Origin: Planctomycetota bacterium
GTDB taxonomy: Bacteria; Planctomycetota; GCA-002687715; CAIWVZ01
NCBI GenBank assembly: GCA_044222185.1
Contig: JBGANV010000003.1
Location: forward strand, 256,001-320,000
Length of the DNA stretch: 64,000 nucleotides
Direction of reading: 5' to 3'
A program made the position numbers and the translations under genes. Every line of letters starts with the position of its first letter. Position 1 is the stretch's first letter. Under the pieces are notes generated by a model. The model was given only the letters and a program-made list of their open reading frames with translations, did not search any database and was not told the DNA's origin. Of this stretch, positions 332 through 10,989 are shown one piece after another.

Positions 332-796
332 TCACTGCACGAGCATCTGGCGAATGAAGATCTGCTCCACGCGCCCGGTCTTCTCCGGGAACACGGTGGA
401 CTGGACGTGGTCGAGGATCTCGTGTTTCAAGAGGAGGAGGTTCTCCTTGCCCTCGATCTCGCGCTGGGTCTTGTTCGACAGCAGCATCGTCAGTTCGTCC
501 TTCAGGGCCATCTCGGCCTTGGTGAAGGGCGCCTTGGGATCGGGTTCCTCGGCGCCGACCTGGTATCCGATGCCGATGCCGATGACGAGGTAGCGCTGGC
601 CCTCGGTCCCCTTCAGGTTGACCGTCAGATCCTTCAGCTCGTACTGCTGGATTCCGGACGTGTAATACGCGTCCGTTCCACGCTTCGACTTCCAGTCGAC
701 GTGCTCTTCGTGGTGGCCGGCCTTGCCCGCGACGACGACCGCCGCCAGACCGAGAACGACGACGGCTGCGCCGCCGATGATGATCATCTTCTTCAT
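332..796 (-). CDS. fliL: Flagellar basal body-associated protein FliL
   Basis: N-terminal TM helix (MKKMIIIGGAAVVVLGLAAVVVA), DLTVNL...RYL motif, C-terminal IFIRQMLVQ; ATG at 796 preferred over GTG at 811. Confidence 0.88.
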   Translation of the reverse strand: MKKMIIIGGAAVVVLGLAAVVVAGKAGHHEEHVDWKSKRGTDAYYTSGIQQYELKDLTVNLKGTEGQRYLVIGIGIGYQVGAEEPDPKAPFTKAEMALKDELTMLLSNKTQREIEGKENLLLLKHEILDHVQSTVFPEKTGRVEQIFIRQMLVQ

Positions 797-856
797 GTCA
801 CGCCCTTGCACTCACCGCGAAACCGGGACGCCTGCCGGAAAAAGTCCTCATCCTCC

Positions 857-977: not shown

Positions 978-3900
978 TCAGGGAATCCGCACGCGAATGA
1001 GGGACGGTTCATGGGCGGGGACTTCGACCTGCGCGTCGGCCCACGTCGCGCTGCCATGGGTCACCACCACGCGCCAGGACCCCGGGATCGCGGGCAGCGT
1101 GAGCTTCGTTGGGCACTCCATGCCGGCGAAGCGGATGAGCGGCTGGTCGTGCCACACGACGCCGGCTGCGTCTTCGACCCGCATGCGGACCCCGGGGAAC
1201 CGCGCGCGCAGGATCGGATCGGTAGCGCTCAGGAGCGTTCCGTCGGCGTTGCTCCGATACTCGAACGCCAGCGCCATGGGCGTCGTCGCGAGGATCCGGA
1301 GCTCGACGCTCCGCGCGCCCACCGCGTCGACCGTGATCCGCGAGGGTGCCGAGACCCGGAACTCCGTTCGGCTGACCGCCCGCGCCATCACCCACCAGTC
1401 GCCCGGCTCCAGCCCGCGGACGGAGAACGCGCCGTCGGCCGCCACGGCGACCTCCGTCGACCGCCCCTCGACGGCTGCGCGACGGACGACGACCGACACC
1501 GTGCCTCCGGGGACCGCTCCGTCGGCATCGAGCACGTGGCCTGCGAGCGATCCACCGACTCCCAGCCTGACGGCCACGTCGATGATGGGGCGCGAGCCAT
1601 CGACGACGATCCCGTCTCGTGCCACGCGCATGGCGTGCGGCGCCCACACATGAACCGTCCACGTCCCGACGGGCGTGCCTCGGAACTCCACGATGCCAGG
1701 CCCGGTCACCTGCCCGACGCGGCCGCCCCCCGACCCGGAGACGAGTTCCGCTTCCAGCCCCGCGAGAACGGGATCGCCCGTCGTTCCATCCGTGACCGTC
1801 ACCCTCACCGTCGCGGTCGGCGTTGCCGTCGCACCAATCGTGAGCACGATCGGCGCCGAACTCGGAGAGATCTCGAACGTCTTCCACGCTGGCCCGACCC
1901 CATCCGCTTGCGCGCAGAGCTCGATGGGACCCGGCGCGAGGTCCTCGATGCGAAACTGCCCACGGGCATCGCTGGCCAGGTATCGCAGTCCCATCCGACG
2001 GCCCGTCTCAGCTTCGGCCTTCGGCGAACCGCGCGCCATCACGACGGCTCCCGCCACGGGCTCCCCCGCCGCCGTGACCACGGACCCGGAGACGACGAGC
2101 CCCCGCGACAGCACGATCCGCAAAGGAGCGCCCGCGGCGCCCATGGGAACGTCCGTCGTCACGAACCCGCTGGCACTCGCCCGCACGGTGTCGGCCGCGA
2201 CGGCCTCGCCGCTCGTCGTTCCGCTGATGGATGCGGATGCGCGGTGCCCGCGATCGACCACGATGGTGAATCCGCCGGCCGCGTCCGTCAGCACCGTGGA
2301 GGGCCACGACTGCGCTTCGATGCGAGCGCCGGCGATCGGCGTCCCCGCCTCGTCGACGACCGCTCCGCTGACGCGATCACGCCCCATGGTGAAGACGAGA
2401 TCGGGGGCCTCGATGTCGCGTCCCGTCGCTGGAACGAGGAGTTTCGGGTGGCCGGGCAGGGACGTATCGCAGCCGCAGGCCGTCAGGCGAATGCTGGTCG
2501 ACGAGGCGCGCGGAACCGCGACGGTCGCGTGTTCGTAACGACCCTCCGCATCCGTGACCGCGGCACCGCCGAGGGGCCCGCCTTCGCCGGGAACGATCCG
2601 GCCCTCGTCACCATCCGCCTCGTCGTCGGGGGCGGCGAACACGCGGACGCCGGCCACCGGTCGGCCGTCGGGATCGACCACGCGACCCGTGATCCGCAGG
2701 CAGGCGCCCAATGCGATCGACACCTGCTGCACCTCCCGCTCGCCATCCGGCATCACCACGGGACACGAACGCGGCGCGTGCCCTGGCGCGATGGCGGCGA
2801 CGCCTCCGATGACGCGTCGGCCATTGACGAACCGTGAGCTGAGCGCGGGCAGCTTGATGCCCGCCACCTCGACCGGGATCCGATCGAACCGGTACCGGCC
2901 GTCGGCGTCGGCCCGGGTCCGCTGTGCGATCCGACTGCCGAACGCGTTGCGGACTCCGACGCCGCGGATGTACCGGGTCCCTTGCGGGCCGTCCGCCATC
3001 CAGAAAACCACGTCGGCGCCCCCGATCGGTCGACCCGACGTGCGATCGAAGACGACGCCCTCCACGACGCCTCCCCGCGCGAGCACCACGTCGAGCGTCA
3101 CGACGCCCGAAGAATGCGCGGGCTGGGGCCGGAGCGGCCGGGCTTGTGGCGCGAACCCCGGCGCATCGAACGCGACGTGCGCGTCGCCGGTCGGCTCGAG
3201 GGCCGTCGCCGGCACTCCGTCCACCGAGTAGGTCCCGTCCGCGGCCGTCGTCGTGCGCGACGTGACCGGGGTCCATCCCACCATCGTCCGGTAGGTGACG
3301 GTCGCGTCGGCGATCGGGTGCCCGCCCAGGTCGGAAACGACCCCGCGGATCCGGAATGCGGCCTGGAGCACGATCGTCGTCTCGATCCCATCGGCGCGCA
3401 CGAGATCCTTGATCCCCACGGCGAACCCATCGGCCGTCGCGAGCACGTCGAACGCTCGCGCCGCAGACGGCGCCGTGATGACGAATCGCCCCGAGGCGTC
3501 CGTCACGGCGGTCGCGAGAGGAGGCGACGGCTCGCGCTCGGCGGCGCCGATCGCCACGGGAGGCCGCCGACCGGAAGCGAAGACCGAGAGCCGCGCGCCG
3601 GAGATCGGTGCGCCCCTGAGGTCGACCACTCGACCGAGGATCGCGCCCCGCTCGTCGAGCGTCGCCGCGGTCACGGAGACCGGGCGCACGACCGGTCCGT
3701 CCGGCGCCGCCGGAGTCGTCGCGGGGCTCGGCGGCATCGCCGCGTCATCGGCCGCGTCATCGGCCGCGTCGGCCGTCCGTCCGACGAGCGGCGACGGCGT
3801 CGGCGAAGCCATGAGGCCCCACCAGGCCGTGAGTCCGAGCAAGACGACCCCGAACAGCACGAGGAGCTTCTTCATCGTCACGACTCCGGCCGTTCCGGCC

Positions 3901-4511
3901 GCGGCCAGCGAAATCCCTCCGTCGACGGACGCCGACGTGAGCACGTCGACGGCGCGACCCGTGGTCCGTCCGAGCGCTGGAAGGAACGCGAGCGCCAGCG
4001 GCACGCGCTCGGATCCGCCGATGCGATCGAGCGTGGCGCCGAGCCGCCGTCGCGCTTCGTGCACGCGCCGTCCGATCGTGCCCACCTTGCAGTCGAGGAC
4101 CCGCGCCACGGCGGCGTGATCCAGGCCCTCGTCGTACACGAGGTGGAGCAGCGCCCGATCGGCCGGTGACGACCGAGCGAGGCCGGCCTCGATCCACTCG
4201 CGGAGGTCCCTCAGCCTCGACGGGTCGGGGCCGGCGACGTCGAGGAACCCGTCCTGGTCCCCCAGGCTCAGGGCGGCGGGCCGCCGCGAGTCATCGACGA
4301 TCCTGTGCCAGGCGATCCTCAGCGCGTAGGCGACGGGGCGATCCGGCGCCATGCCGTCCCGGCATTTCTCCAACAGAGCGAGCACGACCGCGGACGTCAG
4401 ATCCTCGACACGATCCGGGCCGACGAGCCGCCGCACGAACCGCCGCACGGGATCGCGCACGGCCAAGAGGACCTGATCCACGCGCGGGTCTGCTGTCGGG
4501 GTTCGCGCCAT
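978..4511 (-). CDS. ECF sigma factor fused via a TM helix to repeated carboxypeptidase-regulatory-like (beta-sandwich) domains
   Basis: N-terminal sigma region 2 (VEDLTSAVVL...YALRIAWHRIVDDSRR) and region 4 (EGLDHAAVARVLDCKVGTIGRRVHEARRRL); TM helix; about 7 repeats of 'G-V-D--G-P--GA-V...TDA-G-F'. Confidence 0.85.
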   Translation of the reverse strand: MARTPTADPRVDQVLLAVRDPVRRFVRRLVGPDRVEDLTSAVVLALLEKCRDGMAPDRPVAYALRIAWHRIVDDSRRPAALSLGDQDGFLDVAGPDPSRLRDLREWIEAGLARSSPADRALLHLVYDEGLDHAAVARVLDCKVGTIGRRVHEARRRLGATLDRIGGSERVPLALAFLPALGRTTGRAVDVLTSASVDGGISLAAAGTAGVVTMKKLLVLFGVVLLGLTAWWGLMASPTPSPLVGRTADAADDAADDAAMPPSPATTPAAPDGPVVRPVSVTAATLDERGAILGRVVDLRGAPISGARLSVFASGRRPPVAIGAAEREPSPPLATAVTDASGRFVITAPSAARAFDVLATADGFAVGIKDLVRADGIETTIVLQAAFRIRGVVSDLGGHPIADATVTYRTMVGWTPVTSRTTTAADGTYSVDGVPATALEPTGDAHVAFDAPGFAPQARPLRPQPAHSSGVVTLDVVLARGGVVEGVVFDRTSGRPIGGADVVFWMADGPQGTRYIRGVGVRNAFGSRIAQRTRADADGRYRFDRIPVEVAGIKLPALSSRFVNGRRVIGGVAAIAPGHAPRSCPVVMPDGEREVQQVSIALGACLRITGRVVDPDGRPVAGVRVFAAPDDEADGDEGRIVPGEGGPLGGAAVTDAEGRYEHATVAVPRASSTSIRLTACGCDTSLPGHPKLLVPATGRDIEAPDLVFTMGRDRVSGAVVDEAGTPIAGARIEAQSWPSTVLTDAAGGFTIVVDRGHRASASISGTTSGEAVAADTVRASASGFVTTDVPMGAAGAPLRIVLSRGLVVSGSVVTAAGEPVAGAVVMARGSPKAEAETGRRMGLRYLASDARGQFRIEDLAPGPIELCAQADGVGPAWKTFEISPSSAPIVLTIGATATPTATVRVTVTDGTTGDPVLAGLEAELVSGSGGGRVGQVTGPGIVEFRGTPVGTWTVHVWAPHAMRVARDGIVVDGSRPIIDVAVRLGVGGSLAGHVLDADGAVPGGTVSVVVRRAAVEGRSTEVAVAADGAFSVRGLEPGDWWVMARAVSRTEFRVSAPSRITVDAVGARSVELRILATTPMALAFEYRSNADGTLLSATDPILRARFPGVRMRVEDAAGVVWHDQPLIRFAGMECPTKLTLPAIPGSWRVVVTHGSATWADAQVEVPAHEPSLIRVRIP

Positions 4512-4646
4512 GTGCTCGACTCATCCTACAGACGGTCGGCGCGGCGGATCCTTCGCTCGGCTCGCCGAAAACCGACGACCCGTCCGCTCTCGATCAGCTT
4601 TCGGTGAGCGACGTCGTTCCGCCCGATGACTCCGCCGGGGCGGCGC

Positions 4647-7651: not shown

Positions 7652-8572
7652 TCAGGGCAGGAACGTGATCACGACGGCTCGGCGACCCCAACGGTTCTGA
7701 GCGAGCGGAGGTGCACCCGCGCGGGTCGCCGCGCCGAGCGTCAACATGCCATGGGCGACGCAGCGTATACGCTTCTTGTTCACGCCACCGCGGACCAGGT
7801 AGTCCCGCACCGCCACGGCGCGAGCCTCCGAAATGTCCCAGCCGTCGTCGGGGCTCGCGCCTTCCTCGAACGCGTACCCGTCGATGCGGACCTCGAACGA
7901 CGCCGCGGAGATCCCGCGCGCCAGTTCGTCGAGGAACGACGCGTGTCCGCTCGTCAGCGCCGTCGAATCCTGGTCGAAGATCAGCGGAGCGGGCAGCGTA
8001 GACGAACCCTTCTTCGCCATGGCGTCGACGATCACCTTCCGCATGGTGTCGCGGTTCGAATCGAGGATGCGCCCGTCAGGCTCGGCGAGCGTCTTCGTGT
8101 TGATCGAGGCTCCAGGGCGATACACGACGCGCCCCGCGTGAAACTGCACCGGCACGTGCGCGCCCTTCATGCTCCCGAGCGACCCGATCGGAGAGATCCC
8201 CCGCTGGATGGACCCGAGGCCGTCCTCGAGGAGGATCCCCTGCTGCTTGGACGCGAAGGCCGTCAGCAGGATGAAGAAGCACATGAGATTCGTCATGGTG
8301 TCGGCGAACGACAGCAGCCACAGCGGAGCGCTCGGGCCGAAGTCGGGGTGGTGCTCGGCGTGCTTCTTGTGGTGGCCGTGGCCGCCGTGTCCCCCACCGT
8401 GCTCGCCACCATGCCCACCGTCGCCTCCATGTCCGCCGCCGTGACCGTCACCATGCCCGCCACCGCCGTGTTTCTCGGCGCCGTCCTTGTGCCCGGCATC
8501 GTGCTTGGCGGCGTGCCCGTCCTTCGGCTTGGCCGGCGCATGCTCCTTGGGGCTTGCGGGCGCAGCGCTCAC
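7652..8572 (-). CDS. motB: Flagellar stator protein MotB paralog 2 with His/Gly-rich N-terminus
   Basis: WLLSFADTMTNLMCFFILL stator TM motif with conserved Asp; C-terminal OmpA-like domain (ISEARAVAVRDYL). Confidence 0.85.
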   Translation of the reverse strand: MSAAPASPKEHAPAKPKDGHAAKHDAGHKDGAEKHGGGGHGDGHGGGHGGDGGHGGEHGGGHGGHGHHKKHAEHHPDFGPSAPLWLLSFADTMTNLMCFFILLTAFASKQQGILLEDGLGSIQRGISPIGSLGSMKGAHVPVQFHAGRVVYRPGASINTKTLAEPDGRILDSNRDTMRKVIVDAMAKKGSSTLPAPLIFDQDSTALTSGHASFLDELARGISAASFEVRIDGYAFEEGASPDDGWDISEARAVAVRDYLVRGGVNKKRIRCVAHGMLTLGAATRAGAPPLAQNRWGRRAVVITFLP

Positions 8573-9291
8573 TGGACCTGCCTGACGATCACGTCCACGC
8601 GACGGTTCTTGGCGCGACCCGCCGCCGTTTCATTCGACGCGATCGGATACGCAGAGCCCAGCGCCGTGAATCCGATCCTCGCCGGCTCGATGTCCGACGC
8701 CTTCGAGAGGAGCACGGAGACCTTCTGCGCCAGCGCCCGCGTGAGAGCGACGTCGTTGTCGTAGCTCGAGAACTTCCACGTGCGATCATCCGTGTGGGCC
8801 TCCACGATGAACTCGCACGGTTCGCCTCGGAAGAAGTTCCCGATCTCCTCGAGCACGATGGAGGCATCGGGACCGAGTTCGTCGCTACCGGGAACGAAGA
8901 GGGCGGGCTCGGCCAAGCTGACGTGCAAGCCGTCGGCGAGACGCTTCAGGTCGGGCTTCACGGAGTACTCGGCCGATTGGACCTTCTTCGACATCGCTTC
9001 GTCGAACTCCTTCTCGCGACGCTGCGAGCGCTCTTCGGGTCCAACGATGTCACGGGTCCCGTCCTGACCTGGGCGCCTCGCGACGAGCGCCGGGACTTCG
9101 CGGGTCGACTCGGATCCGAAGATGCCCGGATTGCCGGGCCGGAGGTTGCGCCCTCCGTCCGCCGCCGAGCCGGAACTCGAGGATGAGTATGTCGCCATGA
9201 GAATGAAGAAGATGACCAGGTTCGCGATCATGTCGGCGAACGAGATCACCCACAGCGGACAGCCCGGCCCATCACCACCGCCACCGCACAT
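8569..9291 (-). CDS. motB: Flagellar stator protein MotB paralog 1
   Basis: WVISFADMIANLVIFFILM TM motif; OmpA-like domain (VEAHTDD...NRRVDV). Confidence 0.9.
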   Translation of the reverse strand: MCGGGGDGPGCPLWVISFADMIANLVIFFILMATYSSSSSGSAADGGRNLRPGNPGIFGSESTREVPALVARRPGQDGTRDIVGPEERSQRREKEFDEAMSKKVQSAEYSVKPDLKRLADGLHVSLAEPALFVPGSDELGPDASIVLEEIGNFFRGEPCEFIVEAHTDDRTWKFSSYDNDVALTRALAQKVSVLLSKASDIEPARIGFTALGSAYPIASNETAAGRAKNRRVDVIVRQVQ

Positions 9292-9294
9292 GGT

Positions 9295-10098
9295 TCACTT
9301 CTCCGCGGCTGCGCCTTCGGCCTTGGGCGACGCCGACTGGAGGCGACGGCGGGCCTTCGGGTTCAGGAACGCCTTCAGACGCTCTTTCAGCACCTGCGGC
9401 TTGTCACCGCGTTGGATCGCAAGCACTCCCTCGATCATGAGCGTGCGGATGAGTGCCTCCTCCTTCGCACGCGTATCGAGCTTGCTGGCGAGCGGCATGA
9501 AGATGACGTTCGCGAGCATGGCGCCGTAGAACGTCGCGAGCAGCGAAACGGCCATGGATCCACCGATCGACGAGGGATCGGACAGCTTCGCGAGCATGCC
9601 GACGAGGCCCAGCAGGGTTCCGACCATTCCGTACCCCGGCGCCATGGCGGCTCCGTTGTCGATGATCTTCTTCACCGTGCCGTGGCGCTCCTTCATCGTG
9701 TGCACGTCGGCCTCCAGGATCTCGCGAACCGAGTCGGCCTGGAACCCGTCGACCACGAGCATGATCGCCTTCTGCAGGAACGGGTCCTTGACGTTCTTGA
9801 TCTTCTCCTCGAGCCCAAGGAGGCCTTCGCGCCGTGCGACGGTCGCGTAGTCCGCGAGTCGGTCGATCTCCTCGGGCGGAGACGGCAGCGGGTAGATGAA
9901 GCACTTCTTGATGGACGAGGGAACCGCTGCGCAGAGGTTCATGGGGAACGCGAGCAGCGTCGCCGCCAGCGTGCCACCGAACACGAGGATGATTCCCGGC
10001 AGGTTGATGAAGAGTTCGAAACCGCCTTCGTGGTGCATCATCCAGGCGATGATGCCCAAACCCATGGTCGCACCGATGACGCTCGCGAGATCCATCAC
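9295..10098 (-). CDS. motA: Flagellar stator protein MotA/PomA
   Basis: ARREGLLGLE, APGYGMVGTLLGLV and LLATFYG motifs; four TM segments. Confidence 0.95.
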   Translation of the reverse strand: MMDLASVIGATMGLGIIAWMMHHEGGFELFINLPGIILVFGGTLAATLLAFPMNLCAAVPSSIKKCFIYPLPSPPEEIDRLADYATVARREGLLGLEEKIKNVKDPFLQKAIMLVVDGFQADSVREILEADVHTMKERHGTVKKIIDNGAAMAPGYGMVGTLLGLVGMLAKLSDPSSIGGSMAVSLLATFYGAMLANVIFMPLASKLDTRAKEEALIRTLMIEGVLAIQRGDKPQVLKERLKAFLNPKARRRLQSASPKAEGAAAEK

Positions 10099-10251: not shown

Positions 10252-10989
10252 CTACTTCGCGGCGGTGGGGGTCTCTGGGTGGCGCTCGTCGGTCGTCAGC
10301 GTCTGCAGCCGCTTGGTGATTGCGACCGCTTCCGGCGTCTTCATGGCGCCGAGGATCTTGCCGGCCTTGCGCTCCGTCATGCGCGAGATGAGCTTCGCCG
10401 CCATGTCCGGATCCAGGTCCTTGAGCTTGGCGGCCGCGTCCTCGGCCGCCATGCCTTCATAGATGCTCGCGAGGCTCTTGAAGTTCTTCACCTCGGTCTT
10501 CTCGACGAAGACGCGTTGTCGGTCCAGTTCGTCCAGCGCGCTCTTCACTTCCTCCCAGTCCTTGTCGAGCTTCGAGCGCGATCGCGCGATCTCCTCGCGT
10601 TGAGCGTCCAGTTCCGCCTTCGCGCGATCGATCTCGCCTCGCTGTTCCAACAGACGCGTCTCGAGCGACTCGGCACGGGATCGAGCCTCCTTCAACTCCA
10701 TCACCATGGTCTTGATCTGATCCACGGTGTAGGGCTCGGGAAGCTTGAAGTCGTGGCGGCTCTCTTCGAGCCACCTGGCCGCCTCGCGGTCGCGGATTTC
10801 CTCCTGCGTCGGCGGCGGGGTCTCCGGAACGTACTTCGGGAAGAACCCACCGATGACGGGCCAATCATGGAAGACGCCCATGGCCTCCGGCTTGTGGTTC
10901 CCCTTGATCATCAGTGCGCCGTGGACCATCCCCGCGAACAAGAGCAGTGCAACCAGGAGTGCACCGAAGACCTTCATCACAAGTCCCAT
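10252..10989 (-). CDS. MotE/FlbB-like flagellar protein (MgtE N-terminal-like domain)
   Basis: N-terminal TM helix, coiled coil, C-terminal 'LASIYEGMAAEDAAAKL...M-ERKAGKILGAM' motif; position after fliJ. Confidence 0.8.
   Translation of the reverse strand: MGLVMKVFGALLVALLLFAGMVHGALMIKGNHKPEAMGVFHDWPVIGGFFPKYVPETPPPTQEEIRDREAARWLEESRHDFKLPEPYTVDQIKTMVMELKEARSRAESLETRLLEQRGEIDRAKAELDAQREEIARSRSKLDKDWEEVKSALDELDRQRVFVEKTEVKNFKSLASIYEGMAAEDAAAKLKDLDPDMAAKLISRMTERKAGKILGAMKTPEAVAITKRLQTLTTDERHPETPTAAK

Follow-up and report, generated by a model that had tools for sequence, protein, structure and literature searches.

Does a flagellar stator encoded by one motA and two different motB genes carry both MotB proteins in the same motor, or does each of them make a motor of its own? 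In current stator models MotB is a homodimer: its two Asp residues alternate during rotation of the MotA pentamer, and its two identical domains hold on to the cell wall. The locus described here, located in a stretch of 64,000 nucleotides (the window), has a different layout. The gene motA (10098..9295, minus strand) codes for a stator A subunit of 267 aa, identified by its open reading frame (ORF) and by a match to PF01618 (MotA_ExbB) of 87.4 bits. Its TGA is separated by 3 nt from the ATG of motB1 (9291..8569, minus strand; ORF and Pfam), which codes for 240 aa with a transmembrane (TM) helix, a weak plug region and an OmpA-like domain. The stop of motB1 overlaps by 4 nt (GTGA) the GTG start of motB2 (8572..7652, minus strand), whose product of 306 aa has a His/Gly-rich cytoplasmic tail, a TM helix, a plug, a conserved linker and an OmpA-like domain. 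ORF coordinates and junctions thus agree with an earlier sequence-only reading that had described one motA followed by two overlapping motB genes. The overlap of start and stop suggests coupled synthesis of the two MotBs, and a search of the locus found no terminator-like site on the minus strand.

Both motB genes lie directly after motA and inside a flagellar gene cluster that includes flgC, fliF, fliG, fliH, fliI and fliJ, and fliL is found at 811..335. Directly upstream of motA there is an FlbB/YlxF-like gene (10252..10989, minus strand; 245 aa, with a coiled coil), mentioned here only as context, whose matches to MgtE_N (25.4 bits, cut-off 25.9) and collar_FlbB (18.1 bits, cut-off 110) are both below the cut-off. 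Among NCBIfam models, PomA (244 bits) and MotP (232 bits) come nearest to the window MotA, each scoring under its equivalog cut-off. The whole genome, which is 93.8% complete, contains two MotB_plug matches, and these are motB1 and motB2 themselves; of its six MotA_ExbB loci, only that of the window has MotB-like neighbors. No flagellar stator other than the motA-motB1-motB2 set was thus found in this genome.

Both proteins have the makings of a stator B subunit. Pfam recognizes MotB_plug (cut-off 24 bits) and OmpA (cut-off 27.2 bits) in MotB1, with 29.0 and 36.0 bits, and in MotB2, with 41.7 and 48.5 bits, although the plug match of MotB1 spans only positions 17-44 of the 58 in the profile. 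Neither reaches the NCBIfam equivalogs (MotB, MotD, MotS and PomB-type), the best scores being 84.9 and 82.6 bits for MotB1 and 50.0 and 40.2 bits for MotB2, against cut-offs of 259 and 283 in each case. The ion-binding TM Asp is Asp20 in MotB1 (ISFAD; 9232..9234, minus strand) and Asp91 in MotB2 (LSFAD; 8300..8302, minus strand), read from the translations, and is present in all members of the window's class that could be compared (21/21 B1 and 19/19 B2). In alignments, these residues coincide with the Asp of PomB and MotB. The AlphaFold model of MotB1 has a pLDDT above 90 over residues 120-240, and its Foldseek match is the MotB-C of H. pylori, with an rmsd of 2.0-2.3 Å over 121-124 columns. 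For MotB2, the block-mean pLDDT is 74-95 over residues 91-200 of the trimmed protein, and the OmpA-like fold is matched by PA0833, OprF, Pal and MotB-C, mostly with an rmsd of 4.3-7 Å. Each window MotB thus retains, besides the ion-binding Asp and a plug region, an OmpA-like domain predicted to be well folded. The paralogues also differ at their N termini: residues 1-75 of MotB2 (8348..8572, minus strand) form a His/Gly-rich tail; the first 80 residues of the protein include 17 His and 25 Gly. Such a His-rich tail (at least 10 His among the 70 residues that precede the TM motif) is found in 7/21 B2 proteins of the class, the one in the window included. The linker of MotB2 contains several invariant positions (D117, G133, A146, L162, G167, N173, R174 and R178 in full-length numbering).

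The feature that first drew attention to this pair is the state of the peptidoglycan-binding pocket. Five conserved residues recognize peptidoglycan in OmpA-like domains, numbered Gly161, Asp164, Leu179, Arg183 and Arg226 in H. pylori (PMC3080404). The corresponding positions are Ala165, Asp168, Leu183, Leu187 and Arg230/231 in MotB1, and Gly232, Phe235, Ile247, Arg251 and Arg297/298 in MotB2. The set is therefore incomplete in both proteins: MotB1 has no equivalent of Arg183 and MotB2 has none of Asp164. In MotB1, the canonical Asp is kept within EAHTDD (His166-Thr-Asp168; 8788..8796, minus strand), while LTRALA (Leu183-Thr-Arg185-Ala-Leu187; 8731..8745, minus strand) aligns to LSTARA of 6ysf in such a way that Leu187 stands opposite the canonical Arg. 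Arg185, two residues before that position, was considered as a general replacement and rejected, as it is found in only 8/21 class members. The NRRV motif is also kept (Asn229-Arg-Arg231; 8599..8607, minus strand). In MotB2, it is GHTD that has been lost. The profile segment egyayeE aligned to GHTDn of 6ysf and PomB puts an aromatic residue opposite the canonical Asp, which in the window is Phe235 of DGYAFEE (Gly232-Tyr-Ala-Phe235-Glu-Glu237; 7862..7879, minus strand). The canonical Arg is Arg251 of ISEARA (Ile247-Ser-Glu-Ala-Arg251; 7820..7834, minus strand), and NRRV is replaced by Gln292-Asn-Arg-Trp-Gly-Arg-Arg298 (7679..7699, minus strand), an example of a class-specific C-terminal motif, Q[DN]RxGRR. 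These assignments, made from the translated codons and from the alignments to 6ysf and to the profile, bear out what the sequence-only reading had said of the individual residues: both proteins keep the TM Asp, MotB1 has the OmpA-like Asp without the Arg of LSxxRA, and MotB2 has that Arg without GHTD.

The same reading had asked whether the two losses are reciprocal across orthologues, and they are so within the window's class but not beyond it. The canonical Arg is missing in 20/21 class B1 proteins (the exception, at locus L034, has Arg), and the canonical Asp in all 19 complete class B2 proteins, where the position is occupied by Tyr (9), Phe (7) or Trp (3). The pattern in the class is thus more than chance. 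Outside the class, by contrast, the Arg is present in 63/67 B1 proteins, and the canonical Asp is found in only 3/68 of the single MotBs of the phylum, so that the textbook residues of the peptidoglycan pocket are not general in Planctomycetota. Of the two losses, only that of the MotB1 Arg is specific to the window's class. With regard to an Asp merely shifted by one residue, the typical motif of out-of-class B2 proteins is EGHAxD, with an acidic residue one position after the canonical one in 53/75; within the class this position varies, being Glu in 11, Ala in 3, Lys in 2, Gln in 2 and Arg in one.

What remains of each pocket is nearly constant in the class. In B1, the position of His166 is His and the Asn-Arg-Arg is kept in 21/21, and the position of Asp168 is Asp in 20/21 and Glu in one. 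In B2, Glu237 (two residues after the position of the canonical Asp, for which it might stand in), Arg251 and the Gln, Gly, Arg and Arg of Q[DN]RxGRR are each present in 19/19, and this last motif could be aligned in only 1/75 out-of-class B2 proteins. Purifying selection acts on the remainder of both pockets and, since these residues are invariant, a ligand site, though with changed chemistry, has probably been retained in both domains. A single OmpA-like protomer supplies both the canonical Asp and the canonical Arg of its pocket (PMC5974059, PMC3080404), and hence we infer that a B1-B2 dimer would hold two incomplete pockets rather than a rebuilt one. In addition, the loss of the B2 Asp alone need not imply a partner, because most planctomycete MotBs lack it, including the single ones, which presumably act as homodimers. 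The complementary loss is therefore a weak argument for a heteromer.

The inheritance of the operon is more informative. A B2 orthologue was found in 21/23 genomes of the window's class, and the order motA-motB1-motB2 was found at every class locus with enough flanking sequence. For the phylum, the census was seeded with MotA, so that it is not biased towards B2, and found flagellar-type MotA in 191/401 Planctomycetota genomes; the genes in all these comparisons are stop-to-stop ORFs of draft genomes, many of them metagenome bins. Among the 122 out-of-class loci read, 54 have two motB genes, 67 have one and one has none. In the MotA tree (all trees were built with FastTree only), the window falls inside a set of 63 rows with a support of 99, of which 61 are two-motB operons, the exceptions being one with a single motB and one without motB in the stretch read. 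In the MotB tree, 92/95 B2 rows form one set, also with a support of 99, and the single MotBs are separate. B1 and B2 are thus two old paralogous clans, with differing periplasmic ends, and the A-B1-B2 operon is an ancient, stably inherited unit over much of Planctomycetota. This joint inheritance of an A gene with two unlike B genes, seen in 61/63 rows of the MotA clade, is in line with heteromeric 5:1:1 motors of the AglR5-AglQ-AglS type. The window proteins share 35% identity over 115 residues (B1 against B2) and, in the TM segments, 52% over 23 residues (B2 against B1).

The fate of the ion-binding Asp is also unequal. Outside the class, the second MotB lacks this residue in 17/53 operons (Ser in 11 and Ala in 6; families f35, f16 and f90), while the first MotB keeps it in all 52 that could be aligned (one of the 53 could not) and the single MotBs in 68/68. 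The gene order in f16 and f90 was found in 4/4 genomes. Family f35 combines a first B that carries the Asp but whose OmpA-like domain is degenerate with an Asp-less second B in which GHA..LSLARA..NDRV is kept. A B without Asp that is retained beside a B with Asp points to joint action and is otherwise hard to explain. All the Asp-less operons belong to families other than the window's class. Two independent losses are not claimed, as the Asp-less rows lie on one side of a weakly supported branch of the B2 tree (support 32), which is compatible with a single loss.

With these data, the most likely torque unit of the window seems to consist of one MotB1 and one MotB2 enclosed by a MotA pentamer (MotA5-B1-B2), a reading to which we assign a probability of about 0.55. 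MotB1 and MotB2 would sit in one complex, anchored through two unlike, modified pockets, and the asymmetry taken on by homodimeric MotB inside the motor would here be fixed in the genes. The heteromer had already been put forward from the DNA alone, next to a possible anchoring to a protein scaffold instead of peptidoglycan; it now draws on the inheritance of the operon, the age of the two clans and the unequal fate of the Asp, while the rationale originally given for it, the complementary loss, has become weak. A complex prediction with the periplasmic parts of B1 (86-240) and B2 (trimmed 68-231), using separate alignments, gave scores of 0.18 and 0.22, for a mark of 0.32, which we count neither for nor against binding. 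A broader proposal sees the stators from two-motB operons of Planctomycetota as obligate MotA5-MotB1-MotB2 heteromers with gene-fixed asymmetry, those of the class standing on two unlike anchors, possibly peptidoglycan and another partner, and those of related families having one ion site. This we offer tentatively, as somewhat less probable than not.

The most serious alternative is that of two homodimeric stators, A5B1B1 and A5B2B2, sharing one MotA and serving different loads, ions or states of the wall, each with its own anchoring. Dual stator systems are common in other bacteria, and the Asp, the plug match and the OmpA-like fold of both window proteins mean that each could in principle homodimerize with MotA. 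However, known dual stators usually have their own A subunit, and the coupled synthesis suggested by the gene overlap and the absence of single losses of either paralogue in 61/63 rows of the MotA clade fit poorly with two independent devices. A B2 without Asp could not conduct as a homodimer, and yet it has been kept in those 17 operons. Even with the support of Aquifex aeolicus, where either of the two MotBs by itself, tested as a chimera carrying the periplasmic domain of E. coli, could power rotation together with MotA (PMC4525482), we consider this explanation unlikely.

A different division of labor would make the MotB1 homodimer the working stator and MotB2 a non-conducting accessory (an anchor adaptor, a brake or a reserve) bound to MotA, to MotB1 or to a periplasmic scaffold. 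That B2 is the paralogue able to lose the Asp, its more conserved linker, its occasional His-rich cytoplasmic tail and the closer structural similarity of B1 to MotB-C (about 2 Å versus 4.3-7 Å) would all fit. Nevertheless, B2 in the window's class keeps the Asp throughout, together with TM and plug residues that fit a MotA pentamer, and it is B1 itself that lacks the canonical Arg there; moreover, in the 5:2 motors reviewed, the center of the pentamer is the only place known for a B-type TM helix (PMC9389320). This makes an accessory role quite improbable. We give the least credit, and only a slim chance, to a mixed assembly in which B1B1, B1B2 and B2B2 all form in proportions set by expression, resulting in graded anchoring. 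MotA may indeed not distinguish TM segments as similar as these, and the sequences give no evidence of a selective B1-B2 interface, but lineages with an Asp-less B2 would waste part of their complexes, and the two periplasmic domains have been diverging for so long that their roles are probably fixed.

If the two B positions of the MotA5-B1-B2 unit are indeed different genes, they provide a natural handle on whether both ion sites are needed, on the differing jobs of the rotor-near and rotor-far MotB and on how much of the canonical peptidoglycan pocket anchoring requires. If the heteromer is true, the Asp-less second B would imply that one ion-binding site is sufficient for a 5:2 rotary motor. 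The same operon is present in a cultured species, Rohdeia mirabilis Pla163 (locus L103), which makes the question testable. We found no paper in the literature describing a heterodimeric MotB in a flagellar motor.

With the canonical MotA5MotB2 and PomA5PomB2 stators (6ysf, 6ysl, 8bri and 8zyv, and 3s0h for the MotB-C of H. pylori), the window pair shares the order of domains, the TM Asp, the plug, the OmpA-like fold and the placement of the B gene after motA in a flagellar cluster. The canonical stators differ in having a single B gene, a homodimer and all five pocket residues (PMC3080404). The nearest flagellar precedent in gene layout is A. aeolicus, with a single motA and a pair of motB genes in one operon and very different periplasmic domains, although its MotBs' TM and N-terminal portions are 97% identical (PMC4525482), a near identity that the window pair, from two old clans and with 52% over 23 TM residues, does not show. 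The Aquifex Bs were tested separately as chimeras and not as a heterodimer, and the portion of that report available to us mentions neither a reciprocal change of pocket residues nor an Asp-less paralogue (PMC4525482). Outside the flagellar motors, the gliding machinery of Myxococcus xanthus, AglR-AglQ-AglS, also combines a pentamer-forming A-type subunit with two unlike B-type subunits, but it is TolQ/TolR-like, lacks OmpA-like domains and drives gliding (PMC11761067, PMC9389320). An AglQ-AglS heterodimer inside the AglR pentamer (AglR5-AglQ-AglS) is there a model prediction (PMC11761067), and a 2022 review gives the stoichiometry as unknown (PMC9389320). Closer in phylogenetic terms, in the PVC group, a tolQ-like gene is followed by a pair of unlike tolR-like genes, i.e., one A and then two Bs of the same superfamily; these sets, whose function is unknown, are linked to vWA and TPR genes and do not belong to flagella (PMC12204202). 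By analogy, AglRQS and the PVC tolQ/tolR-like pairs may be regarded as precedents, within the same superfamily of motors, for a pair of unlike B subunits.

In the window, motA (10098-9295, minus strand, 267 aa), motB1 (9291-8569, minus strand, 240 aa) and motB2 (8572-7652, minus strand, 306 aa) form the end of a flagellar cluster; they are preceded by flgC, fliF, fliG, fliH, fliI, fliJ and a FlbB/YlxF-like gene and followed by an esterase-like gene, a sigma-70 fusion protein and fliL. Only 3 nt separate motA from motB1, and the stop of motB1 and the GTG start of motB2 overlap by 4 nt. MotA matches Pfam MotA_ExbB, and both MotBs match MotB_plug and OmpA above cut-off; none of the three reaches the curated NCBIfam equivalog cut-offs, the nearest NCBIfam models of MotA being PomA and MotP. 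Since the genome (7.08 Mb, 93.8% complete) contains no MotB_plug match beyond motB1 and motB2, and MotB neighbors occur at only one of its six MotA_ExbB loci (that of the window), no flagellar stator besides this operon was found. Between fliJ and motA (10252-10989, minus strand) lies a gene for a 245-aa coiled-coil protein. It resembles MgtE_N and the collar protein FlbB of spirochaetes only weakly, both scores falling short of cut-off, and may contribute to a scaffold, in the periplasm or the membrane, close to the stator. A 1,180-aa ORF (981-4520, minus strand) is an unusual fusion of N-terminal sigma-70 regions 2 and 4 with repeated carboxypeptidase-regulatory-like domains.

The motifs that the sequence-only reading quoted for the two MotBs were all found in the proteins, with their codons verified. 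Alignment to MotB and PomB chains of known structure, pairwise and by profile, agrees with that reading: MotB1 lacks the canonical Arg of the OmpA-like LSxxRA helix (the position is Leu187) and MotB2 the canonical Asp of GHTD (Phe235). According to the available text of PMC3080404, five residues are common to peptidoglycan-binding OmpA-like domains (Gly161, Asp164, Leu179, Arg183, and Arg226 in Helicobacter pylori MotB); MotB1 has Ala, Asp, Leu, Leu, and Arg at these positions and MotB2 has Gly, Phe, Ile, Arg, and Arg. In Acinetobacter baumannii OmpA, diaminopimelate is bound by the Asp and the Arg (PMC5974059, in the available part, citing Park et al. 2012). AlphaFold models from class alignments predict the OmpA-like domain with confidence in both proteins, that of MotB1 superposing closely on the MotB-C of H. 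pylori (about 2 Å) and that of MotB2 more loosely on Pal, OprF, and MotB-C (mostly 4.3 to 7 Å).

A MotB2 ortholog is present in 21 of the 23 species genomes of the window's class (here equivalent to the order; the related contigs with known titles are metagenome bins), and the order motA-motB1-motB2 is kept at every class locus with enough flank. All 21 class MotB1 proteins keep the transmembrane Asp, which binds the ion, together with His166 and Asn-Arg-Arg, and 20 keep the canonical Asp (Glu in the other), while the canonical Arg survives in one, being replaced by Met, Leu, Asn, Gln, Ser, Ile, Thr, or His in the rest. The 19 complete MotB2 proteins all have the transmembrane Asp, the canonical Arg, a Glu two residues past the canonical Asp position and a C-terminal Gln..Gly-Arg-Arg; the Asp position itself is always Tyr, Phe, or Trp. 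These counts indicate that the reciprocal pattern is real and under selection in the class. The closest contig by MotB2 (L069, 55% identical to the window's protein) carries the title Candidatus Kuenenia stuttgartiensis yet groups with the window's family, and may be a mislabeled metagenome bin.

The class also varies outside the pocket. The cytoplasmic N-terminal tail of the window's MotB2 (residues 1-75; 8348-8572, minus strand) is rich in His and Gly, which number 17 and 25 among the first 80 residues. Similar His-rich tails are present in 7 of 21 class members, including the window, and absent from the others. They may serve in metal binding or pH sensing. In the window's family, MotB1 residues 39-85, after the transmembrane helix, are rich in Ser, Gly, and Pro with no helix modeled (pLDDT <50); in other families of the class this stretch holds a plug-like MEDEKLRRATGSLSGAFG, and the MotB2 model keeps a plug-like helix.

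A scan of species genomes with the B2 pattern gave 80 loci, 79 of them motA-motB1-motB2 and one cut by a contig end. Because such a scan is biased towards B2, the census was redone with MotA as the seed, the two overlapping sets being freed of duplicates by sequence. Flagellar-type MotA was found in 191 of the 401 planctomycete genomes sampled, and among the 122 listed loci outside the class with usable flank, two motB genes follow motA at 54, one at 67, and none at 1 (genes were taken as stop-to-stop ORFs, and many genomes are incomplete bins). In family f48 (genomes G157 and G093), MotA and MotB-like matches lie on separate contigs, with no motB after motA at L186; the operon may be split or the assemblies broken. 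In the MotA tree the window falls within a supported set of 63 rows, 61 of them two-motB operons, and a joint tree of MotBs separates B2 (92 of 95 rows in one clan, support 99) from a B1 clan and a clan of single MotBs. Together, these trees (FastTree only) indicate that the pair stems from one ancient duplication, after which loss of either gene has been very rare.

Outside the class, B1 has the canonical Arg in 63 of 67 proteins and the canonical Asp in 46 of 67. In B2 the Arg is present in 72/75 and an Asp at the canonical place in 6/75, the next position being acidic in 53/75. Single MotBs (68 loci: L057, L058, L060-L062, and 63 more) have the Arg in 61 and the canonical Asp in 3, Ser taking its place in 38. 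Given such low Asp counts, a missing Asp is ordinary for Planctomycetota, the class-specific oddity being the missing Arg of MotB1, and the textbook Asp/Arg pair of OmpA-like domains is not general in the phylum. The reciprocal loss thus holds among the orthologous pairs of the class (Arg absent in 20/21 B1, Asp in 19/19 B2) but is shared only in part beyond it.

The transmembrane Asp has had an unequal fate. In the MotA-seeded set it is present in all 52 aligned motA-adjacent MotBs and all 68 single ones, but Ser or Ala replaces it in the second MotB of 17 of 53 out-of-class two-motB operons. These Asp-less proteins, conserved in other respects, come from families f35 (13 genomes; L164-L181, L190), f16 (3; L051/L151, L054/L149, L150), and f90 (1; L152), and the residue may have been lost only once. 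In f35 the first MotB has the Asp, but its OmpA-like domain is degenerate; the second lacks the Asp, but its OmpA-like domain is better and keeps GHA..LSLARA..NDRV, in what looks like a division of labor. By the established view of MotB, a homodimer without this residue (Asp32 and equivalents) cannot conduct. That an Asp-less MotB is kept next to a partner with the Asp therefore argues for joint action of the two in one unit, although this evidence comes from relatives only, both MotBs of the window's class keeping the Asp.

We consider a MotA pentamer around one MotB1 and one MotB2 the most likely arrangement, with a probability of roughly 55%. Alternative homodimers sharing a common MotA, as was supposed in the case of Aquifex, in which chimeras of either MotB were functional alone (PMC4525482, in the available part), seem unlikely, as conduction by a B2 homodimer would fail in the Asp-less relatives. 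An accessory role for MotB2 is doubtful, and a mixed assembly of MotB1 and MotB2 slightly more so. In the MotA5-MotB1-MotB2 unit, the dimer would carry two altered grooves, one per protomer, because Asp and Arg line one groove of the same protomer; that the half-sites complement each other, as first proposed, is not a conclusion the structures lead to. That the remaining pocket residues are invariant in each paralog suggests that each groove still binds some ligand, whether peptidoglycan (ordinary or chemically altered) or a protein.

We found no description of this arrangement in the literature on MotB1/MotB2, planctomycete stators, two motB genes, or MotB heterodimers. In a 2025 survey of how MotAB evolved, Planctomycetota fall into two flagellar groups, and a term search of its main text, as available, found neither two MotB genes nor tandem genes nor heterodimers mentioned (PMC12505986). 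In the PVC group, dissimilar tolR-like genes come in pairs (PMC12204202, available part). For AglRQS, a heterodimer of B-type subunits has been modeled (PMC11761067), and a 2022 review treated it as an open question (PMC9389320), as far as the accessible portions of both papers go. Precedents for the planctomycete motA-motB1-motB2 stator are thus the tandem motB genes already known from Aquifex and the B-type heterodimer model of AglRQS.
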